NCBI GenBank assembly: GCA_964471535.1
Contig: CAYYHA010000001.1
Coordinates: 6,285-70,284, forward strand
DNA: 64,000 bases
Source: an uncultured Myxococcia bacterium
Lineage (GTDB): Bacteria > Myxococcota > Myxococcia > SLRQ01
Direction: 5' to 3'
This document shows positions 8,117 through 39,577 of the stretch, piece after piece; position 1 is the stretch's first letter, and every line of letters begins with the position of its first letter. The translations under genes were made by a program, and so were the position numbers. The notes below the pieces were generated by a model, which worked only from the letters and a program-made list of their open reading frames with translations, was not told the DNA's origin and did not search any database.

Positions 8117-10528
8117 CTAGCCTCCCGGATTGATCACCACGATCGATTGCAGGTCGAGGCCCGCTGGATAGCCGTAGCTCACGTACTCGTCGTAGCCGTA
8201 GACGGTGACGCCGAAGGGCTGGTCGCTGGAGATGCTGTGGGTGCCGTCCGTGACGGAGACGCGGCCAACCTCGTAGCTGCTGCTTCCCGCCTGGATCCAG
8301 GTGGTGTTCACTGGAGAGCCGTCGAGAAGGATCGTCGCGCCCGTGGGGCGGACGACGTTCACGTAGTCCTGCGCGATCGTGGAGGGGGTGACGAAGCTGT
8401 AGCGGCGCTTGTACTGCGCGGTGGGCGCGGCGAGGATCATCGTGGGATCGCCCATCGTGCTGCCCGTGGCGTCCTGTCCCACCATGAACTGCCCCACCAG
8501 GATGGGGTGGTCGATGTCCTGGCTCTGCACCACGAAGTCCATCGCCGTCTGCAGCTCCACCCACTCGCCGGCGTTGAGGGTGACGTTGGCGTGGACGGAC
8601 GGCGGCGAAAAGCTCAGCACCGTTCCATCTGCCGCAGCCACGATCCGCCACAGGTCCCCCACGGCCGTGTTGCCGCCGGGGGGCGGCTGGGTCCGCGCCG
8701 CGACGTAGTGGTTGCCCCAAGTGGCGAAGGGCGGCATCTGCTGCTCCATGTGGTCGCAGGCCCACTTGTCGTAGGGGAGCAGGCGGCAGTCCGAACCGGC
8801 GTAGACGGCGACGGGCTTGTCGCTGGTGATGATGGTGCCCGTCAGATCGCTCCCTGGATACTCGGTGTGTGTGTCGGTGAGCGTTTCCAGGTTGAAGAAG
8901 CCACAGCTGAGCGGGCGGGTGAAGGTTTGCGCCGCCGGCGTCCCGTAGCGATCGCTGGCGAGCTGCAGCACTTCGAACTGCGCCAACGAGACGGTGACCT
9001 GCTGCCCCGGTGCGATCTGGCTGGGAAGGGATCCACCCGGTGCGATGGCGCCGCGTGCCACGATGGTCACCTGGGTCGTCCCCGGTGCGGTGGCGACGAT
9101 CGTGACGAAGGAGGGGAGGTCGAAGTCGACCTGCTGCCCGTCGCTGCACTCCCGGTGCAAGCTCATGTGGGGGACGGTCATGGCGAGGTAGGTGCTCGCT
9201 GGCGAGGCCGCCGGGTCGCCGAGGATGTGGGCCGGCAGGAGCAGGGAGGCATCGTTGCTGTACGAGAACGTGCCTCCATCCGCCGAGAGGATCGGGTTGA
9301 ACTGGTAGACGGTGACCGGCACCGTGCTGGTCAGCCGGTAGGCGGTCGCGCCCTTCTGGGTCTGACTGCGCCCGTTGGCGTCCACCGCGGGGAGCGCGTT
9401 CCAGGGCAGGCGCAGCTCCTGCAAGTTGCCGCCTGGGATGCTCGCCGACGCCACGGTGCTCCCGCTCGCGTCCTCGACGGTGATCTGTGCGGTGGTCCCC
9501 AGGTGGGGATTGCCGATCACCAGCGCATAGTCGTCGTGGAAGATCGGGTCGATCTGCGTGTTCGAGAGCGCCACCGGCCAGTACTCACAACCGATGTAGG
9601 ACCGCGTGTTCACCGCCTCGTCGCAGAGCGAGACGCAGGCCCCCTGGCGGCAGGTTGCCGCCTGCGCCGCGCAGTCCTCGACGGGGTCATAGCCGGTGCC
9701 ACTCGCGTTGCACTCCTCGACCGCTTCCCCGTTGCAGATGCGTGTCCCCGGCGTGCAGCTGAAGGCCACGCACTCACCTAGGTTGCCATCGCAGGTCGCG
9801 TTGGCGCCGCACGGCTCGGTCTGCCAGGCGGTGCCGGTGGCGTTGCAGACCTCGCGGGTGTTCTGATCGGCGCAGCGGGCCTCCCCCGGGCTGCAGAGCT
9901 GACAGGTTCCCTCGATGCAGGTGCCGGCGCCGCAGTCGCTCGGGCTGCCCCACCCGCTCCCGTCCGCCGCGCAGGTCTCCACCGCGTTGCCGTTGCAACG
10001 GGTGGTGCCCGGGGCGCAGGCGGCACAGGCGCCCGCCACGCAGACCGGTGTGGAATCGGCGCAGGGCGTCTCGATCCATTGGCTTCCGTCGTCCGAGCAG
10101 GTCGCAAGGCCCGTTGCGTCGCTGTTGCACTGCACGGTGCCGGGCGTACAGATGCCCATGGGGCCGCCGTCCTCCGAGCCGCCGTCGGCGGGGCTCCCGC
10201 CATCGGAGCCGCCGTCGGGACCGCCCGCACTTTCACAGGCACCGGTGAGCACGTTGCAGGTCTCTCCCGGCCCGCAGTCGCTGTCGCGCATGCACACCGA
10301 GGGCGCCTCGCAGACCCCGCCGTTGCACACGGTTCCGGAGGGGCAGTCGCTGTCGAAGAGGCAGGTACCGGTGGCGCCGTCGCTTCCACCGCCTCCACCC
10401 CCATCCCGTCGGCCGCCACTGTCCGGCTCGGGGCAGGCCACCATCGAGAGAGCCAGCAGCGCGCCCACGATCGGCAGCGCCCGGCGCGCCCTCCACTTTG
10501 GTCCCGTCTGGTCCGGCGTACGGTGCAT
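8117..10528 (-). CDS. Secreted lipoprotein with four tandem ~45-aa six-cysteine repeats (Myxococcota-type putative metal-binding Cys-rich repeat) and a large C-terminal beta-rich domain
   Basis: It has a signal plus lipobox (LALSMVAC) and a Gly-rich linker. The repeats have the form CxPGTxxCNGxAVExCxxDGSGWxxxxDCxAGTCxxGxCxxC. The C-terminal region is roughly 550 aa. Confidence 0.8.
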   Translation of the reverse strand: MHRTPDQTGPKWRARRALPIVGALLALSMVACPEPDSGGRRDGGGGGGSDGATGTCLFDSDCPSGTVCNGGVCEAPSVCMRDSDCGPGETCNVLTGACESAGGPDGGSDGGSPADGGSEDGGPMGICTPGTVQCNSDATGLATCSDDGSQWIETPCADSTPVCVAGACAACAPGTTRCNGNAVETCAADGSGWGSPSDCGAGTCIEGTCQLCSPGEARCADQNTREVCNATGTAWQTEPCGANATCDGNLGECVAFSCTPGTRICNGEAVEECNASGTGYDPVEDCAAQAATCRQGACVSLCDEAVNTRSYIGCEYWPVALSNTQIDPIFHDDYALVIGNPHLGTTAQITVEDASGSTVASASIPGGNLQELRLPWNALPAVDANGRSQTQKGATAYRLTSTVPVTVYQFNPILSADGGTFSYSNDASLLLPAHILGDPAASPASTYLAMTVPHMSLHRECSDGQQVDFDLPSFVTIVATAPGTTQVTIVARGAIAPGGSLPSQIAPGQQVTVSLAQFEVLQLASDRYGTPAAQTFTRPLSCGFFNLETLTDTHTEYPGSDLTGTIITSDKPVAVYAGSDCRLLPYDKWACDHMEQQMPPFATWGNHYVAARTQPPPGGNTAVGDLWRIVAAADGTVLSFSPPSVHANVTLNAGEWVELQTAMDFVVQSQDIDHPILVGQFMVGQDATGSTMGDPTMILAAPTAQYKRRYSFVTPSTIAQDYVNVVRPTGATILLDGSPVNTTWIQAGSSSYEVGRVSVTDGTHSISSDQPFGVTVYGYDEYVSYGYPAGLDLQSIVVINPGG

Positions 10529-10779
10529 GGGCTCCCTCTCCTTCCCAGCATAGCCCCCGGCAGGGCGTCGCGGAGAGTAGCCGCTCGAGAGCGCCTGTGG
10601 GTCCCGCCGGCGCTTTCGTAAGCCTACATCGACCTACATGGCCTAGAAGGGCCCCGGGCGCGGGCGCGCCTTCGGGGCGCCGACACCTAGGGCCTCCCCT
10701 CGGTTCCTATGCTCCGCCGCCCGGGCTCGGTGGGGCTCCACTTCTCTCGGCCGCGCGCCTTGGCGTACCGTCCTCGCCC

Positions 10780-12954
10780 GTGGACCCCGCCCGACGACCG
10801 GCGCGCTTCGCCGCGCTCCTTCTCCTTGCGCTAGCCGTGGCGGTCGCGGCACCGGCGCTCGTGGCGGCGCCCGTGGCGCTGTGGGGAGACTCGGGCGACG
10901 CGTGGCAAAACCTGTGGAACGGCTGGTGGTTCGCCGAAGCCGTCGCCTCGGGGCACTCGCCGTTCTACACCCATCACCTCTGGTACCCCGACGGCGTCAG
11001 CCTGTGGCTGCAGACCTTCGGCCCCCTGAACGCGGCGGCGACGGCGCTCCTCTCGCGCCTCCTCCCGGGCTTCCTCGGCTACGACCTGGTGGTCCTGGGT
11101 CACCTCTTCTTCGGTGCCTTCGCCGCATGGTGGCTCTGCGACCGCCTCCTCGGGGAGGCCGGCCTCGCCCGTGGCCCGGTGCGGCTGCTCGCCGCCCTGG
11201 CTGGCGCCGTCGTCTTCGGCTTCTCCCCCTACGTCTGGGCCCACCTCTCGGTGCACCTGCACCTCTCCTCCATCGGTTTCCTGGCCCTCTTCGCGGGAAC
11301 GCTCCCCCGGGCGGCCGATCCCAAGGCGGGATGGAGACCCCTCCTCGGTGCGGGCCTGCTGGCGCTCTGCCTGGGGCTGTGCGGCTGGTACCTGGTGCTC
11401 GACGCGGCGCTCCTGGGCGCGGTGTTCCTCTTACTGGCCCTCGCCCGCGCCCCACAGAGCGGCCTGCGCCCCGCCCTGCGCCTCGCCGGCGCCGGCCTCC
11501 TCGCGGGTCTCTTGCTCCTGCCTCTCCTCGTCCCCACCCTCCTGGCCCTCCGCGAGCCGGTCGAAGGGGCCCACGACCCCGTCACCTTCTCCACCGACCT
11601 CCTCTCCCTCTGGCTTCCCACCCCGAAGCAGTGGCTGGGCCGCTACTTCCTCGAGACGACGACGCGCTTCACCGGCAACGCCGGGGAGAACGGCGGATAC
11701 CTGGGCTACCTGCCCCTGGCCGCCACGGGCCTGGCCCTGTGGCGCCGGCGTACGCCCGCGCTGGTGGGCCTGGGGCTCGCGGGACTCGCCGGGGTGGTGC
11801 TGTCCTTTGGTCCCCACCCGCACCTTGCCGGGGCGATCCACCGGGAGGTTCTGCTGCCCTATGCGGCGCTCGCCCGGATGCTCCCCTTCCTGGGGCAGCT
11901 CGGCTGTCCGGTGCGCCTGGGGCTCCTCGGCCACCTGGCCCTCGCCGCGGGGACCGCGCTGGGCGTCTCGGTCCTCCTCGAGGCGTTGTCCCGCCGGCGC
12001 ACCGGCCCAGAGGATCCGTCCCTTCGTCCCCCCTGGCGCCTGTGGGCCGCGGGTCTCCTCGCACTGGCCCTCCTCCTCGTGGAGTACGCCCCGGCGGGAC
12101 AGCCGACCCACCGCTATCCCCGCCCCGCTTTTCTCGAGGCCCTCGGGCAGGTTCCGCCGACGGGCGCGATCGCCGATCTCACCGGCTGGACGCACCCCCT
12201 CTACAACCAGATGCTCCACGGGTGGCCCATCGTGCACGGCTACGTCTCGCGGCGGCCGCTGCGCCTGGTGCGGCGCCTGATGGCCGACCCGGTGCTGGGG
12301 CCCCTCTACGAAGAGGCGCTCTACGGCCGGGCGCCGCGGCAGCGTGCGCTCACGCGCATCGACGGCCCCATCGACTTCGACTGGGGCGAGGCGCCGCCGG
12401 CCCCCGGGGTTCAGGCCGACTTCGAGGCCGAGTGGGTGGGGCAGCTTCGCATCGACCGTCCGGGCCGCTACGCCTTCCGCCTGGGAAGCGACGACGACGC
12501 GGTCCTCTACCTCGATGGCCGGCGCGTCGTCGACAACTCGGGGGCACACCCCTTCGTCACCCGGGAGGGTGAGGTCACGCTCGCAGGCCCGCCCACCCTG
12601 CGCCTCACCTTTCGTGACCGCGGCGGCGCGGCGGCCGTGCGGCTGTGGTGGCGGCCACCTGGCGCCGCGGACTGGTCGATCGTGCCCCGCGAGGCCCTGC
12701 ACACCCGGGCGGGTGCGCCGGGCCTCGAAGGGGTCTACACCCACCGTGCCGCCCGGCCGCGCCTCCGTGGCGAGGCCGCGGCGCGCCACCTGCGCGCGCG
12801 CTGGGGCATCGCCTACCTCATCGCCTACGAGGGGCGATCCGCGGCGCTGTCCACCCTCGGCCTCGAGCGGGTGGGGGCCGCCCAGGGCATCGAGCTGTGG
12901 CAGGTTCCTGGGCCCGCGTCGCGGCCGGATCCCGCCCCCGCCGGCGATCGTTGA
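10780..12954 (+). CDS. Polytopic inner-membrane protein (glycosyltransferase-like, many TM helices) with C-terminal PA14 domain
   Basis: The putative GTG start at 10780 gives VDPARRPARFAALLLLALAVAVAAP; the ORF-track start at 10498 overlaps the divergent gene and is unlikely. There are at least 10 hydrophobic helices. The C-terminus (DFDWGEAPPAPGVQADFEAEWVGQLRIDRPGRYAFRLGSDDDAVLYLDGRRVVDN) matches the PA14 carbohydrate-binding fold signature. Confidence 0.7.
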   Translation: MDPARRPARFAALLLLALAVAVAAPALVAAPVALWGDSGDAWQNLWNGWWFAEAVASGHSPFYTHHLWYPDGVSLWLQTFGPLNAAATALLSRLLPGFLGYDLVVLGHLFFGAFAAWWLCDRLLGEAGLARGPVRLLAALAGAVVFGFSPYVWAHLSVHLHLSSIGFLALFAGTLPRAADPKAGWRPLLGAGLLALCLGLCGWYLVLDAALLGAVFLLLALARAPQSGLRPALRLAGAGLLAGLLLLPLLVPTLLALREPVEGAHDPVTFSTDLLSLWLPTPKQWLGRYFLETTTRFTGNAGENGGYLGYLPLAATGLALWRRRTPALVGLGLAGLAGVVLSFGPHPHLAGAIHREVLLPYAALARMLPFLGQLGCPVRLGLLGHLALAAGTALGVSVLLEALSRRRTGPEDPSLRPPWRLWAAGLLALALLLVEYAPAGQPTHRYPRPAFLEALGQVPPTGAIADLTGWTHPLYNQMLHGWPIVHGYVSRRPLRLVRRLMADPVLGPLYEEALYGRAPRQRALTRIDGPIDFDWGEAPPAPGVQADFEAEWVGQLRIDRPGRYAFRLGSDDDAVLYLDGRRVVDNSGAHPFVTREGEVTLAGPPTLRLTFRDRGGAAAVRLWWRPPGAADWSIVPREALHTRAGAPGLEGVYTHRAARPRLRGEAAARHLRARWGIAYLIAYEGRSAALSTLGLERVGAAQGIELWQVPGPASRPDPAPAGDR

Positions 12955-12985
12955 CACCCGCGGTGGGGCTGGGCAGGAAGGAACC

Positions 12986-13609
12986 ATGAAGCTCGTCAGC
13001 AACTCCTTCGCCCATGAGGCCCCCATCCCCGAGCGGTACGCGATGGGCAAGCCCGATCCCGAGACCCACGCGACCTTCTCGGACAACCTCAATCCCCACC
13101 TCGCCTGGTCCGAGGTCCCCGAGGGCACGCGCTCCTTCGCGCTGGTGGTGGTGGATCCCGACGCACCCTCGGTGCCCGACGACGTGAACAAGGAGGGTCG
13201 CACCATCCCCGCCGACCTGCCCCGCGTGGACTTCCACCACTGGGCGCTCGTGGACATCCCCGCCGATGTGCGCGAGATCGCCGAGGGCAGCCATTCGAAG
13301 GGGGTGACCCCGAAGGGCAAGCCGGCCGACGCCGCGCCGGTGGGCCGCCACGGGATCAACGACTACACGATGTGGTTCGAGGGCGATCCGGAGATGGGCG
13401 GCGACTACTACGGCTACGATGGCCCCTTCCCCCCGTGGAACGACTCCATCGTGCACCACTACCACTTCATCCTCTACGCCCTCGACGTGGAGCGCCTGCC
13501 GGTGGAGGGCCGCTTCACCGGGGCCGATCTGCGCAAGGCGGTCGCGGGGCACGTACTCGCCGAGGCCACCCTCACCGGCACCTACGCGATCCATCCCGCT
13601 CTGCGCTGA
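12986..13609 (+). CDS. YbhB/YbcL family protein (PEBP/Raf-kinase-inhibitor-like)
   Basis: The ATG at 12986 is preceded by AGGAAGGAA. The sequence MKLVSNSFAHEAPIPERYAMGK...VVDPDAPS...FHHW...HHYHFILYALD is the typical bacterial PEBP signature. Confidence 0.85.
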   Translation: MKLVSNSFAHEAPIPERYAMGKPDPETHATFSDNLNPHLAWSEVPEGTRSFALVVVDPDAPSVPDDVNKEGRTIPADLPRVDFHHWALVDIPADVREIAEGSHSKGVTPKGKPADAAPVGRHGINDYTMWFEGDPEMGGDYYGYDGPFPPWNDSIVHHYHFILYALDVERLPVEGRFTGADLRKAVAGHVLAEATLTGTYAIHPALR

Positions 13610-13652: not shown

Positions 13653-14273
13653 CTACCACCCGGGGGGCACCGCCCCGTGGAAGCAGGTGATGGTGTGGGG
13701 CCGGCCGGGGCCGCTCCACCGCGCCGCCACGGGTTCCTCTGGGCGCCCCGCCTTCAGACCTTCGGTTTCGCTCCACCCCGGCGCTTCGCCGGGGCCGAGG
13801 CTGTGGAGCCCGCTCTGCCAGGGGCCGATGATGAAGGTGTGGCCCGCTGCCCGGGTGCCGAAGAAGTCCACCCAGGCGCGGGCGAAGTCGTGGCCGGGGC
13901 GTGCGCCAAAGGTCTCGCAGGTGCGAAACCACCAGAGCGCCCGCGCACCGCACAGCCGCGATCTCAGCGTTCGGAGCAGGGGGCTTAGCGGGTGGCCTGG
14001 ACGGAGTGCACGCCGGTCGAGGGGCTTTCGGTCCATCAGCAGGGTGCCCCAGGTGCCGTGCCCCCAATACTGCACCTCGGAGATGGGCCGCTCGGGCGCG
14101 TAGCCAGCGAGCCACTCGAGCGCGTCGCTCCAGCGCTCGAAGCCGCGGTAGGCATCGAGCCGCCCGAGTGCCCGGTAGAGCCAGCCGCCGGCGATCCAGC
14201 TGTGGGTGAGCCCAGGAAGCGGACCCCATCCGCGACAGGTTCGGTCGTAGATCATCAGGCGGAGGCCGGACAT
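13653..14273 (-). CDS. Hypothetical Trp-rich protein (206 aa), translationally coupled to the upstream VWA lipoprotein
   Basis: The start ATG at 14271-14273 overlaps the TGA of the upstream gene as TGATG. The protein (MSGLRLMIYDRTCRGWGPLPG...WGHGTWGTLLMD...GHTFIIGPW) has no family I can recognise. The upper part of the long ORF 13653-15836 is an antisense artefact. Confidence 0.5.
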   Translation of the reverse strand: MSGLRLMIYDRTCRGWGPLPGLTHSWIAGGWLYRALGRLDAYRGFERWSDALEWLAGYAPERPISEVQYWGHGTWGTLLMDRKPLDRRALRPGHPLSPLLRTLRSRLCGARALWWFRTCETFGARPGHDFARAWVDFFGTRAAGHTFIIGPWQSGLHSLGPGEAPGWSETEGLKAGRPEEPVAARWSGPGRPHTITCFHGAVPPGW

Positions 14274-17200
14274 CAGAGACACGCAGCGTCGTACTCGATC
14301 ACGACGGTGGCCCCGGGGGGCGGGGTGGCGCCAGCGTCGAAGACGATCCGGTTCTCGGCGGCGTCGTAGCTCCAGGCGCCGGCGCCCGCGGGTACCTCCT
14401 GCCCATCGACGTAGACCCGGATGCTTCCCGCGACCGCGGGTTGGCTCAGAGGGTAGCCGCCCAGCGCACCAAAGATGCCCTCCGACAGGGCATCGGCCAC
14501 GGCCCCAAAGTCGGTGCACAGGTCGTAGATGCCGCCGCCGGTGGCGCTGGCCAGCGCCTCGTAGCGCATCCGTCGGGCCTCCTCGCCGGTTCCGCATGCC
14601 ATCGGTCCCACCACCGCGTGCAGCGTGGCCCCGTCCGGGGGCAGGTTGTTCAAGAACTCGATGGCCTCGTCCACCGTCTCGATGCTCTGATCCTCCTCGT
14701 CGCTGACCACGATGATGTGGAGCGGCGCGCCGGGGCGGCGGAAGCCGGCGTTGTCCGTCGAAGCGAGGGGCTCGCTCAAGGCGGCCATGAAGGCGGCGAT
14801 GCCCCGCTCGGTCCCGACGCCCGGCGGCAAGCTCCCCAGGGCGGCGGAGAGGGTCGCCGGTGGCGTGGGGTCCGTGCGGTCGAGCCATCGCGCACCGCTG
14901 GGGAAGCTCTGGAGCCGGCCCTGTTGCCCGGCGGTGAACATGTCGGTGGTGACCAGACCCACCCGAAAGTCGAGGCCGAGCTCGAGCGCCCGGCGCATGA
15001 AGCGATCGGCACTTCCCTGCAGCCGGGCAATGTCGTCGGACATCGAACCCGAGTTGTCGATGACCAAGAGCACGTCGACCGCCGCCGAACGACCGTTTGC
15101 GTAGACCTCGGTGCGGGCCGCGCTGCCCACCGCCTGCCCATAGAGCATCACCGGGGTCACGCCGACGACCGGGTCGGTCTCGATCTCCAGGGTGGCGGTA
15201 TCGAGTCCCACCCCCGTAGGGGCATAGCGCAGGCCCAGCGTCATCATCGCCCCCGGGTCGAGCTGCGCTGGCAGAGGGGGACGCGAGGTGAAGACGAAGG
15301 CGCCCGCCGGGACGACCCGGAGCGCCGTGATCTGCACCGGCTCCACACCGCTCCGATAGAGGGAGACTGTGGCCTCGGTGGAGGCGCAGCCCACCTGCAC
15401 GGCGCCGAAATCGAGCTCCTCCGGCGCGGGCAGGACCTCCCCGTCGAGCCCGATGCCGAAGAGCCCGATGGTCCGGCAGCCGGGGGTCCCGTCGCTGCAC
15501 TCCGAGGCCTCCGTCCCGTCGTCGGTGACGATCTCCAGGAGCCCGCAGCTCGGCTCGGCGAGGCCCGGCCGGTAGCGTACCTCGACGGTGCCCACCGCCC
15601 CCGCAGGAAGGATGGAGGTGGCGATACCGTCCACCAGGACTCGATCGGCGGGGGAGGCGAGGGAGTAGGGGCGTTCGCTGGGACTGGTGGCGTGGTCCGT
15701 CTGCACGCGCACTCGCTGAATGAAGCAGGCGCTCGGGCCGACATTGTGGATCTCGTAGCGTTTGACCTTCGTGGCCCCCACGGCCACGCCGCCGAAGGTC
15801 CCCTGCCGCCGGGAGAGCAGGGTCCCGTCGGTGCAACTCGAGCGGGGATTGGCCTCGGCGATGGGGGTGGGGATGGAGATATGGCAGCCGGAGGAAAGGT
15901 CCGGCCAGGCGACGAGCTCCACCTCCACCGGGGCCTCGATGTCGCCGGTGAGGCGGAGCCGGGCGACGTCCGCGTCGGGACGACCGTCGGAGTGGTATGC
16001 GACGCGGAAGGAGAGCGCGTCACCGGGATCCATCTGGAAGGGAAAGTGATCGACGGGCCACTGGCTGATGCGAAACCGGCCCTCACCCCCGGCGATCTCC
16101 GCTACCAGCCCGGTACATGGCGCATCGCCCACGTTGGCGAGCACCACGGTGCGCTCCGCCGTCTCATTTGGCGCCACGACGCCGTAGCTCACCGTCCACG
16201 CCGCCGGCTCGAGGCGGCAGCCCGGGGGAAAGGCAGCCTCGGCGCGCAGCGGCACCCCCATCTGTCGCTGCGCGGGATCGTTCGACTGCACCATGAAGCG
16301 GCCGAGCACGGTGCCGTAGCGGCTCGCCACGAAGGAGAGCACAAGCTCCGCCTCTTCCCCCGGTGCGAGGGTGAAGGGCGGCGTGTGGGAGGCCGTCTCG
16401 AGGGAGAAGGCATCACTCTCGCGGACGCCGTTGCCGTCGCGCATCGCCCAGGCCTCCACGGCGACGGGGCGCAGCCCACAGCTCCGCAAGGTGAGCGAAG
16501 CCTCGGCTGCTTCTCCAACGACCACCTCACCGAAATCCACATGCGACGGATCGGGGCACAGGCGGGGTGCATCGCCTCGGCCAAAGAGGTCGAGGAGCAG
16601 CTCCCCCCGCGGGTCGTCGGATCCGATGCGGAGGAGGGCCCGATTCGTGCCTCCGACGCGGGGATGGAAGCGGACCGTGAGCGGGATCGAGGCACCCGCC
16701 TCGAGGCGCGTGGGCACTGCGGCGGGCAAGAGCTCGAAGCTCGAGGCTTCCTCGCCGTCCACGTTGGCTTCGAGGGAGGCGAGGGCGCCGGGACCATCGT
16801 TGTGCACCTCGAGGGCGCAGCGTTGGTCCGATTCGAGATCCAGGTCGGGGAAGGTCACCTCGAACGCCTCACCGGGGCGGGCGCATCGCCGCGCTTCGGC
16901 GCACGGGCCCGCCGGCAGGCACACGGTGAGCGCCGGGACCACACCGTCGCCGCGGACTGGGACCTGCAGCTTGGGTGAGGAGCGGTCGTTGGTGTGGAGC
17001 AGCAGGCTTCCCTCGTCGGGGCCCGTATCCACCGGGCGATAGGCGATCTCGAGCGCGAGGCACTCGCCGGGATCGATGCGATCGGAGGCGAGCCCGGGCC
17101 GCTCGACTCCGGTGCGGCAGTCGATGGGCACGAGGCGCCCGTCCCAGGTGAACTCCCCGGTCGAAGCCTGCAGCAGGGGCGTTTCGAGGAGGACGAGGCG

Positions 17201-17380
17201 GGCGCTGCCCTCGTTGCGCAGGACCACCTGCCGCGTCGCGCCCGCGGCCTGCGTCTGGCCCGGGAAGACGATGGGATCGGGTGTCACCTTGAGGACGGGG
17301 CCCACGTCTCGAAGACCCGTGCCCCCATCGAGGCACCCCACCGCCAGGGTGAGCATGGCTCCCAGCACGACGACCCGCAC
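14273..17380 (-). CDS. Large surface lipoprotein with at least 5 Ig-like repeat modules (ASH/choice-of-anchor-D-like) and a C-terminal von Willebrand factor A (VWA) domain with MIDAS
   Basis: It has a signal plus lipobox (MLTLAVGC). The repeats recur as [FY]G.V.VG..(6-8)..L.N.G...L (DPIVFPGQTQAAG..VVLRNEGSARLVL, HVDFGEVVVGEAAEASLTLRSCG, VSYGVVAPNETAERTVVLANVGDAP, GTFGGVAVGATKVKRYEIHNVGPSA, ELDFGAVQVGCASTEATVSLYRSG). The VWA domain is DVLLVIDNSGSMSDD ... HIIVVSDEEDQS. Confidence 0.85.
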   Translation of the reverse strand: MRVVVLGAMLTLAVGCLDGGTGLRDVGPVLKVTPDPIVFPGQTQAAGATRQVVLRNEGSARLVLLETPLLQASTGEFTWDGRLVPIDCRTGVERPGLASDRIDPGECLALEIAYRPVDTGPDEGSLLLHTNDRSSPKLQVPVRGDGVVPALTVCLPAGPCAEARRCARPGEAFEVTFPDLDLESDQRCALEVHNDGPGALASLEANVDGEEASSFELLPAAVPTRLEAGASIPLTVRFHPRVGGTNRALLRIGSDDPRGELLLDLFGRGDAPRLCPDPSHVDFGEVVVGEAAEASLTLRSCGLRPVAVEAWAMRDGNGVRESDAFSLETASHTPPFTLAPGEEAELVLSFVASRYGTVLGRFMVQSNDPAQRQMGVPLRAEAAFPPGCRLEPAAWTVSYGVVAPNETAERTVVLANVGDAPCTGLVAEIAGGEGRFRISQWPVDHFPFQMDPGDALSFRVAYHSDGRPDADVARLRLTGDIEAPVEVELVAWPDLSSGCHISIPTPIAEANPRSSCTDGTLLSRRQGTFGGVAVGATKVKRYEIHNVGPSACFIQRVRVQTDHATSPSERPYSLASPADRVLVDGIATSILPAGAVGTVEVRYRPGLAEPSCGLLEIVTDDGTEASECSDGTPGCRTIGLFGIGLDGEVLPAPEELDFGAVQVGCASTEATVSLYRSGVEPVQITALRVVPAGAFVFTSRPPLPAQLDPGAMMTLGLRYAPTGVGLDTATLEIETDPVVGVTPVMLYGQAVGSAARTEVYANGRSAAVDVLLVIDNSGSMSDDIARLQGSADRFMRRALELGLDFRVGLVTTDMFTAGQQGRLQSFPSGARWLDRTDPTPPATLSAALGSLPPGVGTERGIAAFMAALSEPLASTDNAGFRRPGAPLHIIVVSDEEDQSIETVDEAIEFLNNLPPDGATLHAVVGPMACGTGEEARRMRYEALASATGGGIYDLCTDFGAVADALSEGIFGALGGYPLSQPAVAGSIRVYVDGQEVPAGAGAWSYDAAENRIVFDAGATPPPGATVVIEYDAACL

Positions 17381-21188: not shown

Positions 21189-21318
21189 ATTTTTTCTCTC
21201 GATCCAAGCTGTTGAAAATACGATACTTTTGGTGGTGGCTTCGGGCCTTTGGAGGCGTTGTCCCACATGAACGCCCGTCCGGTGCATAGGGACGGATCGC
21301 CCGGTGGCCCACCGCCCG

Positions 21319-22461
21319 TCACGGGCTCGCGCTACCCGCTTCGCCTGCGGTGGCCTTCTCGCCCGCGGCCGCCTTCTCGCCCTCGGCCGCCGCGCCCGCC
21401 ACCTTCGCCTGCGCGGCCACATAGGGGGGCCAGAAGGCCAGCGGGTCCTTCACCGCCCGCGGGCGGGGCTCGAAGGGGAGGTGCTCGGGTACCTCGATCG
21501 TAGCCGGGCGGCCGATCCCCTCGAGGGTGCGGGTCAGGTGGATCTCGAGCGTTGCCGGCTCGGGACGCGCGTCCTGTGGCGGGACGACGAGGCGGCCTTC
21601 GATGTCGAAGGCGAGGACCACGCCGGTCAAGCGGTCGACGAGGACCTCTCCGGCAACGCTCACCGGCTCGCCCGCTTCGAAGACGGCCCTGCGGTGGCGA
21701 AGTGCTGCATCGGGTCCGTCCTTCGGGTAGCGCGGCTTGGCGGCCCAGGCGGGCTTCGGCGGCGGGAGCAGCGCGGGGTCGGAGGTCTCTGCCGTCGCGA
21801 GGACGTAGCGCACCGCCCCGCGCCCCTGGTGGGTTGCCGTCCCCATGTTGGCGAGGGTGATCTTCCCGTCGAAGAGTTCGAAGAAGGTGGCGAGCTGGCC
21901 CATCGCCTCCTCCCGCCAGGCCTCGTGTCCCGCGCGGTCGCTGCGGCGCTCGTGGAACTTCCCGTGGCGGCTCTTCACGTAGATGACTCCATCCACGTAG
22001 CGAAGCTCCATCCCGAAGTCCTGGTCGTTGTCGATCTTCACTTGAAAGTCGCCGCTCGCGCTCTGCAGCAGCTCCGCCCGCTCGGAGAGGGAAACTGCGT
22101 CCTTCCCGCGCTTCCAGGTGAACTCCACCTCGTTGATGGCGTGGAAGTCACCGAGCCGGTGGCGCATCTCCACCGCGCGCATGCGCAGGATGCGCCGCCG
22201 CATCGCCGCGTCGGTCGCCACCGCATCGGCGTCGAGGGCCTCGGCGGCCAAGCGCTCCTCCTTCGGTGGCTCCTCCGGCGAGAAGATTCGCTCCTTGGCC
22301 GCCTGATCCTCGCTCGTGGGACAGGAGGAGAGGCAGCCGGACAAAGAGGCGGCCGCGAGCCACAGGGCGGGCAGGCACGCGGCGACGCGGCAGGCCGGCC
22401 GCCTTCCCGCGGTGGGGGGGGCGCACCGGACGGCGCGGGCTTCGCGAGGCGGCGTTGCCAT
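21319..22461 (-). CDS. Hypothetical lipoprotein (380 aa), Ala/Glu/Lys-rich C-terminal tail
   Basis: The internal start MATPPREA... at 22461 is followed by a signal and lipobox (AASLSGCLSSC). The rest of ORF 21319-24264 upstream of this Met is antisense to the acyltransferase and is rejected. Confidence 0.55.
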   Translation of the reverse strand: MATPPREARAVRCAPPTAGRRPACRVAACLPALWLAAASLSGCLSSCPTSEDQAAKERIFSPEEPPKEERLAAEALDADAVATDAAMRRRILRMRAVEMRHRLGDFHAINEVEFTWKRGKDAVSLSERAELLQSASGDFQVKIDNDQDFGMELRYVDGVIYVKSRHGKFHERRSDRAGHEAWREEAMGQLATFFELFDGKITLANMGTATHQGRGAVRYVLATAETSDPALLPPPKPAWAAKPRYPKDGPDAALRHRRAVFEAGEPVSVAGEVLVDRLTGVVLAFDIEGRLVVPPQDARPEPATLEIHLTRTLEGIGRPATIEVPEHLPFEPRPRAVKDPLAFWPPYVAAQAKVAGAAAEGEKAAAGEKATAGEAGSASP

Positions 22462-22605
22462 CGTCGCGCGGTGGTACCATCGCCAGCGCCGGCGAACAAG
22501 CGAGGGCCGGCGCCCGCCGGGCCGCGGCTCGGGCCCGCTGATGCACTTGGGCCGGAGGCCCCCCGGGGCAGCCGCAGAGCGCAAAAAGACGGTAGACTCG
22601 TCGCC

Positions 22606-24186
22606 GTGAGCCAGGCCGGGCAGCACCGCGCCGGGTCCGCGGCCGCGCCCCCGGGGACCGGAGGGAAGGCCCCGGAGGGGGGCGGGGCGAAGCCGGGTCG
22701 CCCCTCGCTCCTGTACCGGGGTTGCCTCTCGCTCTTCCGTCTCCTCGTCAGGGCCTACTTTCGGGAGGTGCGGGTGGTCGGGACCGAAGAGGTCCCCCGC
22801 GATCGAGGGGGGCTCGTCGTCTCCTGGCATCCGAACGGCCTGGTGGACCCAGGCCTCATCCTCACCACCTTTCCCCGGCGCATCGTCTTTGGGGCGCGCC
22901 ACGGCCTCTTCCGGGTCCCACTGCTCGGCGCCTTGATGCGCGCCATCGGGACCATCCCCATCTACCGCGCCATGGACCAGGCGGGGGTGCCCGATGAGGT
23001 GCGCCGAGCCCGAAACCGCGAGAGCCTCGACGCGCTGGCCGCCGAGATCGCCGGAGGTGCGTTCTCGGCGCTCTTCCCCGAGGGGGTGAGCCACGACGAT
23101 CCCCACCTCGCGCCGCTCAGGACGGGTGCAGCGCGGCTCTACTACCGGGCCCGCGCGCTCTCCACGCCCGGGCGGCCGCCCCCGGTGATCGTCCCCGTCG
23201 GTCTCCACTACGACCACAAGCGTTCGTTTCGCTCCCATGCACTGGTCGAGTACCACCCCCCCATCGCCCTTCCCCCGCATCTGGACGTCACGCCGGGGCC
23301 GGAGTGGGGTGAGGCCGAACGCCGCGACCTGGCGCGGGCGTTGACGGAGGAGATCGAGCGTGCCCTCGCCGAGGTGGTGCAGGCGACCGAGGATTGGGAG
23401 GTCCACCACCTCCTCCACCGCGTGCGGAAGATCGTGCGGGCCGAACGAAGCAAGCGGCGGGGCGTCGACCCTGGGCCCAGCGACATCGAGGAGCGGACGC
23501 TCGCCTTCGCACGGGTGCGCACCGCCTACTATGCGCGGGTCGGTCAGGACCCCGAGGGGGTGGCCCGCCTGCGTGACCGCATCCGCGACTACGACGCCGA
23601 TCTGCGGGCCCTTCGGATGGAGGACCACGAGCTCGACCGGCCCCCCGACCTCTTCCGCCCCTGGCTGGCAGCGGCGTTGGCGTTGCAGGTCGTCACGGTC
23701 TTCCTCCTGGTGCCCCCGATCCTCCTGGTGGGCTATGCCGTCAACGGGCCGCCAGCGCTCGTGATCAAGGGGCTGTGCAAGGTGGTGGCCCAGAAGAAGA
23801 AGGACGAGGCGAGCTGGAAGGCGCTCGCCGGTGCCGTGCTCTTTCCACTGACCTGGCTGGGCGTGGGGGCCGCCGGATTCTTCGGCTACGAGCAGCTCCA
23901 CGCGAGCTTTCCAGCGGTGCCCGAGGTGCCCCTCCTCGCCGGCGCGTTGCTCGCGGGGCTCTCGGTGGCCGGTGGCTTCCTGGCCCTGCGCTACCTGCGG
24001 GTGGCCGCCGAAACGGCGCGGGCCCTTCGGGTGCGGCTGACGCGCCGCCGCCGCCGCCAGGCGGTGGCGCGGCTCCTCGCCGAGCGCGCTGCCCTCTACG
24101 ATGCGCTCACGGAGATGGCCGAGGGTCTCGACCTGCCTGGCGCCATCGCTCCCGACGGGACGGTGCGCCGTGCGCCTGTCACGTAA
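22606..24186 (+). CDS. Lysophospholipid/glycerol-3-phosphate acyltransferase family protein (PlsC-like) with long C-terminal polytopic membrane extension
   Basis: The HX4D motif (WHPNGLVDP), FGARHGLF and FPEGVSHDD blocks of PlsC-type acyltransferases are present. The putative GTG start is at 22606. The C-terminal ~220 aa contains several TM helices. Confidence 0.75.
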   Translation: MSQAGQHRAGSAAAPPGTGGKAPEGGGAKPGRPSLLYRGCLSLFRLLVRAYFREVRVVGTEEVPRDRGGLVVSWHPNGLVDPGLILTTFPRRIVFGARHGLFRVPLLGALMRAIGTIPIYRAMDQAGVPDEVRRARNRESLDALAAEIAGGAFSALFPEGVSHDDPHLAPLRTGAARLYYRARALSTPGRPPPVIVPVGLHYDHKRSFRSHALVEYHPPIALPPHLDVTPGPEWGEAERRDLARALTEEIERALAEVVQATEDWEVHHLLHRVRKIVRAERSKRRGVDPGPSDIEERTLAFARVRTAYYARVGQDPEGVARLRDRIRDYDADLRALRMEDHELDRPPDLFRPWLAAALALQVVTVFLLVPPILLVGYAVNGPPALVIKGLCKVVAQKKKDEASWKALAGAVLFPLTWLGVGAAGFFGYEQLHASFPAVPEVPLLAGALLAGLSVAGGFLALRYLRVAAETARALRVRLTRRRRRQAVARLLAERAALYDALTEMAEGLDLPGAIAPDGTVRRAPVT

Positions 24187-24223
24187 GCCCTGCGAAGGCC
24201 TCCTCGTACATGGACCCGATTCG

Positions 24224-25408
24224 TCATGCGTCTTCTGAGGTCGTACTCGAGGCGCCACTTCCATCCGAGAGATCTGGCGGTGACTGCTCGCTCTCGGCGT
24301 GGGCCTCGCGGATCGAGATCGTGTCGACGAGCGATCTCCAAGTCTCGTGGACGCGGCGGCAGTACTCGAGGAAGGGACCGAGGCGATCGAGGGTGAGCGC
24401 CTGGGGTCCGTCGCAGAGCGCCTCGGACGGGGCGGGATGGAAGTCGACGAGGACGCAGGTGGCCCCAGCGATGAGGCCCTGCCCGGTTACGTGAAAGATA
24501 TCCGGCAGCCCGTCGGGGGCCACCGCGGCGCGACCGACGCTGTGAGAGGGATCGATGCACACGGGCAGGCGCGTCTGCCGGCGCACGACGGGGACGTGGC
24601 CGAAGTCCACCAGGTTGCGGTGGGGATCTCCGAGGTGGGTCTTCACGCCCCGCAGGCAGAAGACGATGTTGGGGTTGCCCTCGGTGGCGACGTACTCGGC
24701 GGCGTTCAGCGACTCCTCGAGGGTGATCCCCATCCCGCGCTTGAAGAGCACCGGGAACGCCCGCTGCTGTCCCACCTGGCGCAGGAGCTCGAAGTTCTGG
24801 GCGTTGCGGGTGCCGATCTGCACCATGACACCAGTGGGCTGCCCCGCCTCTTCGAGCGCCCGGGCGATCTCCTCGAGATGCCGCGCGTCGGTGACCTCCA
24901 TGGCGATGACCCGGATGCCGTACTTGCCCGCCAGCTCGAAGACCCAGGGGAGGCAGGCGGCGCCGAGGCCTTGGAAGTCATAGGGGCTGGTGCGCGGCTT
25001 GTAGGCCCCCATGCGTGTGGTCGTCACCCCGTGCTCGGCGAGTGCCGCGAGCATCGCCTCCACGTGCGCCGGCGTGTCGACGGCACAGAGCCCCGCGAGG
25101 ACGTTGAGGGTGCGCCGGTCGAAGGTGACGCCGTTGTAGGTGAACCCAAGGTCTCGGGCATCGGCTTCGTGGCGGCCGATGAGCCGGTACTTGTGGGAGA
25201 CGCGCACCACCTGCAGCACGCCGGGGAGCGCTGCAAAGGGCTCCTTGGGGACCAGGCGGGTGTTGCCGATGAGGTGGATTTCCACCACCCGCTCCTGAGC
25301 GCCCTCGAAGTCGTAGCGCCGGGTGCGCACCCCGGGATGCCGGCGGGCGATCCCTTCGACCGCCGCCACCGTCTCTTCGGAGGCGCTGGGATCGATGGTG
25401 ATGATCAC
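24224..25408 (-). CDS. 3-deoxy-7-phosphoheptulonate (DAHP) synthase, type I-beta with N-terminal ferredoxin-like regulatory domain
   Basis: The putative GTG start is at 25408 (VIITIDPSASEE..., resembling the N-terminus of Thermotoga-type DAHPS). KYRLIGR, KPRTSPYDFQG and the TIM-barrel KDO8PS-like core are present. Confidence 0.85.
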   Translation of the reverse strand: MIITIDPSASEETVAAVEGIARRHPGVRTRRYDFEGAQERVVEIHLIGNTRLVPKEPFAALPGVLQVVRVSHKYRLIGRHEADARDLGFTYNGVTFDRRTLNVLAGLCAVDTPAHVEAMLAALAEHGVTTTRMGAYKPRTSPYDFQGLGAACLPWVFELAGKYGIRVIAMEVTDARHLEEIARALEEAGQPTGVMVQIGTRNAQNFELLRQVGQQRAFPVLFKRGMGITLEESLNAAEYVATEGNPNIVFCLRGVKTHLGDPHRNLVDFGHVPVVRRQTRLPVCIDPSHSVGRAAVAPDGLPDIFHVTGQGLIAGATCVLVDFHPAPSEALCDGPQALTLDRLGPFLEYCRRVHETWRSLVDTISIREAHAESEQSPPDLSDGSGASSTTSEDA

Positions 25409-37556: not shown

Positions 37557-38423
37557 CTAGCGCGAAGCGTTGGTGCCGGGGAGGGAGAGATCGGCGATCA
37601 CCGGAAAGTGATCGCTGGCGGTGGACTCCTCGCGCATCGCCGGACCCGCATCCGAGGCGAGGCTGGGATCGACGAGTACGTAGTCGAGGCGCTGGCCCCC
37701 TTCGAAGGTGGGGCCCTCGTCGAAGCGGCCCACCACGTCCACGAAACCGCGCCGGGTGAAGATCGAGGGCGCCTCCTCACCGGGCCCCATGTTCAGATCG
37801 CCGGCGACGACGGTGGGTTCTCCGGGTTCGCTATCGAGGGCCTCGGCGAGGGTGCGGGCGTTGGCGGCGGCCGCCCAGGGAAGGAAGTCCACGTGCACCG
37901 CGACGACGCGGAGGCGCTCGCTGCCTGCGCACACCGTCGCATCGATGGCGACCCGCGGCTCGAAAGCGCCTCCGGCGACCAGGGGGATGCGCCGCGCCGC
38001 CTCGATGGGCAGCCGGGAGAGCAGGGCCACGCCGTAGTCGCCACCCTCCCGTTTCATGGCACCGGCGAAGACGAAATCGTAGCCGAGGCGCTCGGCGAGG
38101 GTCCGCGCCTGGTCCACCCGTCCCGTGCGCGCCACGCCCACGTCCACTTCCTGCAGAGCGATCACGTCCGCATCGAGCGCCGCGAGGGTCTCGGCGATGG
38201 TCTCGAGGTCCGAGGAGAGCCCGGCGCGGATGTTGAAGGTGGCCACGCGCACACGCCCGGTCTGTCCCGAGACCTCTTCGCAGCGACTGAGCGGCGAGTG
38301 CACGAATGCGTTCGAGGGGGTTGCACAGCCCCCCAGGATGGCGGCACAAGGCACGAGGCAGGAGAGGATCGTCTGCCAGGCCCCGCCCGGCCGCGCCGGC
38401 TGCCTCGGTGTCGATCCATGGCT
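37557..38423 (-). CDS. Endonuclease/exonuclease/phosphatase (EEP) family lipoprotein
   Basis: The putative GTG start at 38423 gives a signal and lipobox (AILGGCATP). VATFNIRAG, LQEVD and GDLN.. followed by the terminal SDHFPV are the classic EEP motifs. Confidence 0.75.
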   Translation of the reverse strand, partial: SHGSTPRQPARPGGAWQTILSCLVPCAAILGGCATPSNAFVHSPLSRCEEVSGQTGRVRVATFNIRAGLSSDLETIAETLAALDADVIALQEVDVGVARTGRVDQARTLAERLGYDFVFAGAMKREGGDYGVALLSRLPIEAARRIPLVAGGAFEPRVAIDATVCAGSERLRVVAVHVDFLPWAAAANARTLAEALDSEPGEPTVVAGDLNMGPGEEAPSIFTRRGFVDVVGRFDEGPTFEGGQRLDYVLVDPSLASDAGPAMREESTASDHFPVIADLSLPGTNASR

Positions 38424-38443
38424 CACGGCACCTAGATCTACCA

Positions 38444-39577
38444 GCGATGTCGACCTCGATGCATGCGGGCCCCTCGCGGCGGCCACCGGAGCGCTCGGCG
38501 CCGAGACGGGTGTGCCAGCGGGTGCGCTCTGCGCCACGTCGCTGCCGCCGGACACGGGGCCTTGGCCGCGCCCTGCAGCTTTGGCTCTGGCTCGGCCTGT
38601 GGCTGGGAGTCTCGGTGCTCCTCACCCCGCGTGCTGCGCAGGCGGCGGCGCCCGGCGCCGCCGCCTCGAGGTCGGCCTCGGCAGCCGAAGCAACCGAGGC
38701 CGGCTCGCAGGCACCATCCCCTGCGTGCCGACCCATCGAGGCCAAGGCGCCTCGGTGCGGGGTATCGCTGCCCGGTCCCTACCTCGGCGACGCCCTCCGC
38801 TGGCCGAAGGCCGATCTGCCGACCCGCTTCCTTGCCGATCTCGCGGCCATCCCCCTGAACCTGCCCCGCTGGACCGGCGAAGACGTGGGCACCTTCGTGC
38901 TCTTTGCTACCCCGGTGCTCTTCCTCATGGTCGGGCCCGATCCGGTGCCCGACGTGCAGATCCAGCGCTGGGTGCAGGCGATCTTCGGGCCTCGCGAGCA
39001 GCGCTTCCAGCTGTGGACCCCCCTGGGAGACGTACTCGTCTGGAGCGGCATCTGGAGCCTCGTGGGCGCCGCCTGGCTCCATGGCACCCTCGCCGGCGCT
39101 CCGGAATACCTGGAGATGGTCTCCTTGATGCTCGAGGCCTTTGGACTCGCGCAGGTCTACCAGCTCTTCTTCAAGTTCCTCCTGGGGCGGGAGGGCCCGA
39201 AGGACGGCGACGGTCTGGCGCGGATCCATGGGCCGGCGAAGTTCTTCGAGCTCTTCCCCGCCGGCACCCCCTCCGGCCACGTTGCCACCCTCTACGCCCT
39301 GATGGGCGCCGCCGGGACTTACTGGGCGAAGCCCTGGCTCTACGCGGCGCTGATGGGCTTTGGACTGCTCTTTTCGGCAACCATCGTCATCGACGACTAC
39401 CACTTCGTCTCCGACGTCCTCTGGGGCGCGGCCATGGGCTGGTACCTCGGGCGGTGGGTGGTGCGGCATCGCGCGCGCCCGAGCCGAAGCGGCGTCGATG
39501 CGATGGCCCCCGCAGCGCTCCTCCCCGCGGCCCTGCCCGGGGGTGGGGTCGGGCTCGCGGCGGCGTGGACCTTCTAG
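38444..39577 (+). CDS. PAP2-superfamily phosphatase (membrane-associated, secreted N-terminus)
   Basis: KFLLGREGP (KxxxxxxRP), PSGH and SATIVIDDYHFVSD (SRxxxxxHxxxD-like) are the PAP2 signature blocks. There are several TM segments. The start is uncertain (ATG at 38444 or 38456). Confidence 0.75.
   Translation, partial: AMSTSMHAGPSRRPPERSAPRRVCQRVRSAPRRCRRTRGLGRALQLWLWLGLWLGVSVLLTPRAAQAAAPGAAASRSASAAEATEAGSQAPSPACRPIEAKAPRCGVSLPGPYLGDALRWPKADLPTRFLADLAAIPLNLPRWTGEDVGTFVLFATPVLFLMVGPDPVPDVQIQRWVQAIFGPREQRFQLWTPLGDVLVWSGIWSLVGAAWLHGTLAGAPEYLEMVSLMLEAFGLAQVYQLFFKFLLGREGPKDGDGLARIHGPAKFFELFPAGTPSGHVATLYALMGAAGTYWAKPWLYAALMGFGLLFSATIVIDDYHFVSDVLWGAAMGWYLGRWVVRHRARPSRSGVDAMAPAALLPAALPGGGVGLAAAWTF

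Follow-up and report, generated by a model that had tools for sequence, protein, structure and literature searches.

GT-C glycosyltransferases act outside the cytoplasm, where they decorate the surface polymers of bacteria, and the majority of bacterial GT-C families are uncharacterized. By definition, these enzymes have 8 to 13 transmembrane (TM) helices and an acidic motif (DXD or a modified form of it) in an extracytoplasmic loop, usually the first (PMC5836110). The CsbB/YfhO system follows a two-step logic built on a polyprenyl-phosphate sugar (PMC5836110), and the carbohydrate-binding modules (CBMs) of the GT-C enzymes EmbC, AftD, and the GT136 enzyme ORF12 bind acceptor glycans (PMC11127046). 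Here we describe two divergent genes in a 64,000-nucleotide (nt) stretch of DNA, referred to as the window, from an uncultured Myxococcia bacterium (contig CAYYHA010000001.1): one encodes a polytopic membrane protein of 724 amino acids (aa) with a PA14 domain, and the other encodes an 803-aa lipoprotein with cysteine repeats. A model-made first-pass annotation, which drew on the sequence alone, had read the pair as a surface module under shared regulation. The best explanation of the locus as a whole is probably a different one, in which two independent envelope genes lie back to back, one for a GT-C/PA14 glycosyltransferase and one for an independent lipoprotein.

Open reading frames (ORFs) for both products exist, at 8117-10528 on the minus strand (lipoprotein) and 10780-12954 on the plus strand (membrane protein). 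Their third-position GC contents (GC3) of 0.89 and 0.87, respectively, are what is expected of real genes in a genome with 70% GC. The membrane ORF was originally listed as 10498-12954 with a TTG start, which runs into the start of the lipoprotein gene. GTG 10780 is the sole start that gives a sensible N terminus, and the 724-aa product from this corrected start has the same sequence and length as NCBI protein P0001. With the start moved to 10780, the true intergenic spacer is 251 nt (10529-10779).

The GT-C core of the membrane protein

The membrane protein begins with a TM core (aa 1-435, 10780..12084, plus strand), for which hydropathy, DSSP assignments on a structural model, and loop charges together point to 11 TM helices and a cytoplasmic N terminus. 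This number falls within the range of the GT-C definition (PMC5836110) and bears out the earlier count of 10 or more TM helices. A soluble alpha/beta domain (aa 436-724, 12085..12951, plus strand), delimited by DSSP on the model, comes after the last helix, TM11, and hosts the PA14 module. Since an Arg-rich cytoplasmic loop (aa 402-418) lies ahead of TM11, this 289-aa C-terminal domain would be placed in the periplasm under the predicted topology.

Directly after TM1, in the first periplasmic loop, is the motif G36-D37-S-G-D40 (aa 36-40, 10885..10899, plus strand). D40 is invariant in an alignment of 13 sequences and at least 90% conserved in an alignment of 67 sequences. It lies where GT-C enzymes have their defining acidic first-loop motif (PMC5836110), here in the modified form D-x-x-D, and is the candidate catalytic Asp. 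The AlphaFold2 model based on the 67-sequence alignment (predicted local distance difference test score [pLDDT] of 93.7, predicted template modeling score [pTM] of 0.90) has the three-dimensional GT-C fold, with similarity to Pmt4, Pmt2, and ArnT at the fold level only.

No Pfam or NCBIfam model matched the membrane core, and the single NCBIfam score obtained was at chance level (E of 0.05, 12 bits versus a cutoff of 572 bits). The models for GT39 (PMT, PF02366) and GT83 (PMT_2, PF13231) matched neither the query nor six orthologues. The YfhO model (PF09586) did not match the query at an E value of ≤0.1 or ≤1 and was found only on remote relatives, and the DUF6311 model (PF19830) did not match the query at an E value of ≤1, with precomputed matches on the homologues P0008 to P0010. 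A profile search of PDB sequences with the membrane protein gave chance-level matches only.

A profile built from the first homologues, by contrast, recovered proteins annotated as DUF6311 (PF19830) and YfhO (PF09586), and a PTPS_related annotation was also present among the relatives. Using hhalign, the protein aligned with DUF6311-annotated proteins at 99.9% (E of 1e-35) over 454 columns that take in all of the TM core and the beginning of the C-terminal domain, and with YfhO-annotated proteins at 99.5% (E of 2e-23) over 343 columns. Because both of these sets were themselves collected with a family profile, the alignments demonstrate homology at the level of a superfamily and not membership in either family. 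The comparison with GT39, GT83, and YfhO that the first-pass annotation had called for thus came out in two parts: the Pfam models went unmatched, whereas profile-profile homology identifies DUF6311 and YfhO as the nearest families. The group is large, with 2766 core relatives at an E value of ≤0.001 and 71 at ≤1e-30 in a HMMER search of 1.84 billion cluster representatives. One relative, the 824-aa protein P0022 of Streptomyces sp. yr375, has a GT2 domain annotated as "dolichyl-phosphate beta-glucosyltransferase" (aa 17-179) fused to a DUF6311/YfhO-like GT-C core (aa 254-727), which scores 99.6% in hhalign.

The PA14 insertion and the proposed reaction

A PA14 module of approximately 117 aa (about aa 526-642, 12355..12705, plus strand) was identified by Pfam (PF07691, above the cutoff), by phmmer against the PDB, and by conservation among relatives, and it has the beta-barrel fold of the family. 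The earlier description of a clear C-terminal PA14 domain therefore holds for the domain but not for its position, as the module is an insertion inside the C-terminal domain and is followed by about 80 residues. The relative P0006 and DUF6311-type relatives lack exactly the PA14 segment, and their final 80 aa still align. In the PDB, the module hit 6qdi (E of 1e-24), 6qe7 (E of 3e-14), and 6m8m (E of 1e-6) and is closest to the modules of RsgI4 and RsgI3. In these modules, a Ca ion coordinated by a DcisD pair and by a residue of CBL2 mediates the binding of xylan and pectin, and Ca dependence was directly shown for xylan binding by RsgI4 (PMC6852018). In the alignment, D571-D572 (nt 12490-12495, plus strand) correspond to D86-D87 of RsgI3, and D613, the third candidate ligand, corresponds to Q130 (residues per PMC6852018). 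As judged by this alignment, the module would have the DcisD pair and the Asn, Gln, or Asp in CBL2 that are typical of Ca-dependent PA14 lectins.

The fusion of PA14 to a membrane core, initially regarded as unusual, is less so than it appeared. PA14 is found at the same site in at least 25 of 155 related proteins, namely, the 148 top representatives of the core search plus seven orthologues. Other modules occur elsewhere in the superfamily: an N-terminal PA14 with PMT_2 in P0013, a C-terminal ILEI domain in P0015, and PA14 near aa 124-213 together with a C-terminal F5/8-C domain in P0033 and P0039. From these sequence comparisons, the PA14 fusion is an established subfamily. A near-unique fusion was considered and dropped, as the roughly 5 PA14-bearing orthologues returned by a word-index search proved to be an underestimate when the search was made exhaustive.

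The PA14 insertion could be structural or could mediate protein-protein contact or oligomerization instead of binding carbohydrate. Many PA14 domains, including that of the anthrax protective antigen, are not lectins, and some members of this clade have dispensed with the module or its ligands: P0006 lacks it and P0007 has a degenerate copy, with the GT-C core kept in both, and one or both Asp residues are lost in three to five of the 25 PA14-bearing relatives. We consider this alternative unlikely, since about 80 to 88% of relatives retain the DcisD-type pair and the third ligand position (D571 in 20/25, D572 in 22/25, and E, D, or Q at position 613 in 21/25), the closest solved relatives are Ca-dependent polysaccharide binders (PMC6852018), and comparable positions in sister lineages hold other CBM-type modules.

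The 724-aa protein is thus very probably a periplasm-facing, sugar-transferring enzyme of an uncharacterized family with a built-in sugar-binding PA14 module. We propose that it is an inner-membrane GT-C-fold glycosyltransferase from an uncharacterized clade related to DUF6311 and YfhO. In the cytoplasm, a GT2 enzyme encoded at another site would synthesize a polyprenyl-phosphate-linked sugar, which the GT-C enzyme would take up once it has been flipped to the periplasmic side. The conserved D40 of the GDSGD motif would then help transfer the sugar to a periplasmic acceptor, most likely a cell surface glycan. Within the C-terminal domain, putatively exposed to the periplasm, PA14 may serve as a Ca-dependent CBM that holds the acceptor glycan, a role that we infer by analogy with the CBMs of EmbC, AftD, and GT136 ORF12 (PMC11127046).

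Several observations count against this explanation. The first-loop motif is D-x-x-D and not a classical DXD, and none of the Pfam GT-C family models is reached by the query itself. No GT2 polyprenyl-phosphate sugar synthase, flippase, or glycan synthesis gene was found among the Pfam-scanned genes at window positions 761-52644. ORF12 remains active without its CBM (PMC11127046), which means that PA14 may have no more than an auxiliary role. With respect to the independence of the two genes, a perfectly conserved 27-nt block in their spacer, described below, would permit common regulation of both in this lineage. The missing family matches and donor synthesis genes would also suit a protein with a GT-C fold that is no polyprenyl-phosphate-sugar transferase, such as a scaffold, a polymerase- or ligase-like protein, or a lipid-modifying enzyme, and ArnT-like relatives indeed act on lipids and not on glycans. 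Given the near-invariant Asp of the first loop, the GT2 fusion in P0022, and the YfhO and PTPS_related annotations on relatives, however, we regard such a function as improbable.

The lipoprotein and the gene neighborhood

Only the window and the locus L001/L002, which represent two closely related metagenome-assembled genomes (MAGs), have the lipoprotein gene divergently upstream of the GT-C gene; in L001/L002, the GT-C protein is 63% identical to that of the window, and flanking genes are shared. The lipoprotein gene is absent from the 21 other distinct GT-C loci (L003-L007 and L011-L027). These include loci from a scan of 185,579 species genomes, which yielded 18 GT-C loci, and tblastn for the lipoprotein matched none of these 18. 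In three loci, a codirectional gene encoding Peptidase_M50 and CBS domains sits 55 to 72 nt upstream of the GT-C gene (L003, 6799-7938; L004, 6774-7928; L006, 1909-3057), and other neighbors take the position of the lipoprotein gene in L005 and L007. Because an M50/CBS gene stands in its place in three loci and the window contains no copy, the lipoprotein gene appears to have replaced it in this lineage.

The relatives of the lipoprotein lead to the same picture from the other side. Its closest homologues, P0080 and P0082 (approximately 50% identity), have no GT-C gene nearby, and their genes are preceded by a codirectional gene for a 1329- to 1345-aa protein without a Pfam match (L008, 2856-6845; L009, 2853-6890). 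This ~1330-aa protein is a more conserved partner of the lipoprotein clade than the GT-C gene is. P0080 shares the ENA accession ERZ25039549 with the GT-C orthologue P0005, although the two are on different megabase-scale contigs. A search of the window for the M50/CBS gene, the 1330-aa partner, and paralogues of either gene found none of them. Conservation of the two genes together, on which the first-pass annotation had itself staked a functional pairing, does not extend beyond the window and L001/L002, and the proposed surface module under shared regulation is not supported. The divergent arrangement is probably a recent local rearrangement and not a conserved functional pair.

The 803-aa lipoprotein (8117..10528, minus strand) matches NCBI protein P0079 (locus tag D6729_09135) at 100% identity, and the two have the same length. 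Its signal peptide and lipobox (aa 1-32, 10433..10528, minus strand) consist of a basic N terminus, a hydrophobic segment (aa 14-35, modeled as a helix at aa 17-31), and the sequence LSMVA-C32, with Cys32 predicted to be lipidated. The protein has the signal peptide and lipobox Cys of a bacterial lipoprotein under a relaxed pattern only, because Met at position -3 is atypical; a lipobox-like motif of this relaxed kind is present in 72 of 120 homologues. The structural model has two disordered linkers, one rich in Gly (aa 31-53) and one rich in Gly, Ser, and Asp (aa 103-124). Between them are two short 4-Cys units (aa 56-98, 10235..10363, minus strand) that resemble Myxo_Cys_RPT, Dickkopf_N, and DUF7107, all below the cutoffs: Myxo_Cys_RPT (TIGR04201) reached 16.1 bits against a cutoff of 25 over aa 56-73 only, which places the protein outside that family, and Dickkopf_N and DUF7107 gave E values of 1e-4 and 6e-4, respectively.

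Four tandem six-Cys repeats follow (aa 127-301, 9626..10150, minus strand), and repeat alignment and Cys counts confirm the earlier description of these repeats and of a beta-rich domain after them. The repeats are 44, 41, 46, and 44 aa long, and each has exactly six Cys residues in register with the pattern C-x-P-G-x3-C...C...G-x-W/Y...C...C...C. No Pfam or NCBIfam family matched the four repeats, which are modeled as small beta-hairpin modules (pLDDT of 84 to 94). For six Cys residues per repeat in an exported protein, disulfides are a better fit than metal binding. The beta-rich region (aa 302-803, 8120..9625, minus strand), which had been left unnamed, contains the Pfam domain IgGFc_binding (PF17517; aa 426-778, nt 8195-9253, minus strand; E of 8.7e-76). 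The match covers the full model (1-297 of 297) with 255 bits against a cutoff of 25.6 and makes the protein a member of this family. The name is no guide to function, because IgG binding was not seen for the homologous N-terminal domain of human FCGBP (PMC8267560).

The lipoprotein has at least 676 homologues, mostly annotated as Myxococcota, Sandaracinaceae, or "Deltaproteobacteria," in which 14 to 99 Cys residues precede the beta domain, so that repeat number, and with it stalk length, varies across the family. The 803-aa protein is an ordinary member of this large, mainly myxobacterial family of exported lipoproteins. It would combine a lipid anchor with a variable-length stalk rich in disulfides and with an IgGFc_binding-type head of multiple beta sandwiches, the latter probably serving in ligand binding or adhesion. 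The best reading is that it acts independently as a binding protein of the cell surface or periplasm and has a disulfide-bonded stalk, and its annotation as part of a glycosylation module is not warranted.

The 251-nt spacer between the two genes has no sigma-70 consensus match and no Rfam match. It contains a 27-nt block, TTTCGTAAGCCTACATCGACCTACATG (10614..10640), that recurs with 100% identity in the orthologous spacer of L001/L002 (7898-7924); outside this block, the spacers of the window and L002 have diverged. Within the block, which is unique in the window, CCTACAT occurs twice with a 10-nt period. Its distance to the lipoprotein ATG is 86 nt (95 nt in L002), and that to the GT-C GTG is 140 nt (77 nt in L002). 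The block is a candidate promoter or operator.

This shared block in a divergent promoter region is also the starting point for a functional module in which the lipoprotein is a substrate of the GT-C/PA14 enzyme, with its Gly/Ser/Asp-rich linkers as possible sites of glycosylation, or in which both proteins together build and bind one surface glycan. Both products face the periplasm or the cell surface, the disordered linkers would be suitable targets, and other GT-C enzymes, the PMTs and a streptococcal system (PMC12041528), glycosylate Ser/Thr-rich disordered regions. We consider such a module very unlikely, as the adjacency is confined to two closely related MAGs, M50/CBS genes or other neighbors occupy the site in L003 to L007, L005, L007, and 16 remote loci lack a lipoprotein match, the closest lipoprotein homologues follow the 1330-aa protein with no GT-C gene nearby, and both families are large and apparently distributed independently. 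Little credence is likewise due to an extended version, in which the PA14-inserted clade would be a distinct, unclassified GT-C family (a candidate new CAZy family) whose lectin directs sugar addition and which, in this lineage, has been recruited beside the lipoprotein under a shared 27-nt operator to glycosylate its linkers or display its ligand glycan.

The most consistently conserved neighbor of the GT-C gene is a gene of the PEBP/YbhB family (209 aa, 12980..13609, plus strand; Pfam PBP, E of 3e-39). It starts 25 nt past the GT-C stop codon and encodes a product without a signal peptide. As in the window, a PEBP/YbhB gene adjoins the GT-C gene in L001/L002, where the two overlap by 4 nt, and in L006; in L003, it is found 2.6 kb downstream. 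The PEBP/YbhB and GT-C genes may be cotranscribed. A 205-aa ORF lies at 13653-14270 (minus strand) and has no Pfam match; a 206-aa gene takes the same position in L001/L002. The 205-aa ORF adjoins a gene for a 1035-aa protein (14273-17380, minus strand) with ASH, Cep192_D4, and HYDIN-type Ig-like domains, apparently a large exported beta-rich protein. Farther along, a 960-aa ORF (plus strand) and a 981-aa ORF (minus strand, no Pfam match) overlap at 21304-24264 with a similar GC3 (0.82). A PAP2 superfamily membrane phosphatase (38306-39577, plus strand) lies 25 kb from the GT-C gene; the family includes polyprenyl-pyrophosphate phosphatases.

Comparison with known systems

For the DUF6311/YfhO-like superfamily, this clade offers a fold modeled with confidence, a candidate for the catalytic Asp, and an integrated PA14 module with conserved Ca/sugar-binding residues. 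The isolated PA14 module could help to track down the acceptor glycan, usually the most difficult thing to establish for an orphan GT-C enzyme. Accessory carbohydrate-binding domains are already known among GT-C enzymes. The finding is useful for annotation and would not surprise a specialist. We found no description in the searchable literature of a DUF6311/YfhO-like GT-C protein with a PA14 barrel inserted into its C-terminal domain, no papers in a literature search combining "PA14 domain" with "GT-C" and "glycosyltransferase," and no paper in a full-text search for "DUF6311." DUF6311 (PF19830) is the closest family by profile comparison, and a first-loop motif of the form G-D-x-W-Q/N-x-W is common to both; the DUF6311 proteins examined lack PA14.

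Among described systems, three-component extracytoplasmic glycosylation of the YfhO (Bacillus subtilis) and GtlB type likewise relies on a polytopic GT-C protein that carries an acidic residue in one of its outer loops. In the YfhO/CsbB logic, the polyprenyl-phosphate sugar is a GT2 product that crosses the membrane by means of a flippase and is then transferred on the outside by the GT-C enzyme (PMC5836110), and the same is likely here. The GT2-GT-C fusion in P0022 matches this two-step logic (PMC5836110) and would provide a useful single-polypeptide model of the pathway. The differences from YfhO are nevertheless considerable. YfhO has 13 predicted TM helices with a large outer loop between the last two (PMC5836110), whereas the window protein has 11 helices and a C-terminal domain after the last. 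YfhO lacks PA14 and works with a GT2 partner, whereas the window protein has PA14 and no adjacent GT2 gene. Lastly, the target of YfhO is Gram-positive lipoteichoic acid, which is not expected in a Myxococcota-type organism.

The neighboring lipoprotein shares with human FCGBP the IgGFc_binding domain (PF17517), which is the N-terminal domain of FCGBP and is strongly matched in the window protein; the latter differs as a bacterial lipoprotein that carries a stalk of Cys repeats and lacks vWD assemblies. The PA14 module finds its closest counterparts in the clostridial proteins RsgI3 and RsgI4 (PDB 6qe7 and 6qdi), which carry tandem PA14 dyads on a single-pass anti-sigma factor and act in signaling, whereas here a single module is part of an enzyme. 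The CBL2 residue is Asp in the window module and Gln or Asn in RsgI3/RsgI4. For the enzyme as a whole, the closest precedents in design are EmbA/B/C, AftD, and ORF12 of Citrobacter youngae, GT-C proteins whose sequence-level family membership is not shared by the window protein: in these, an Ig-like or CBM-type domain is terminal, whereas in the Myxococcia protein a PA14 barrel lies inside the C-terminal domain.

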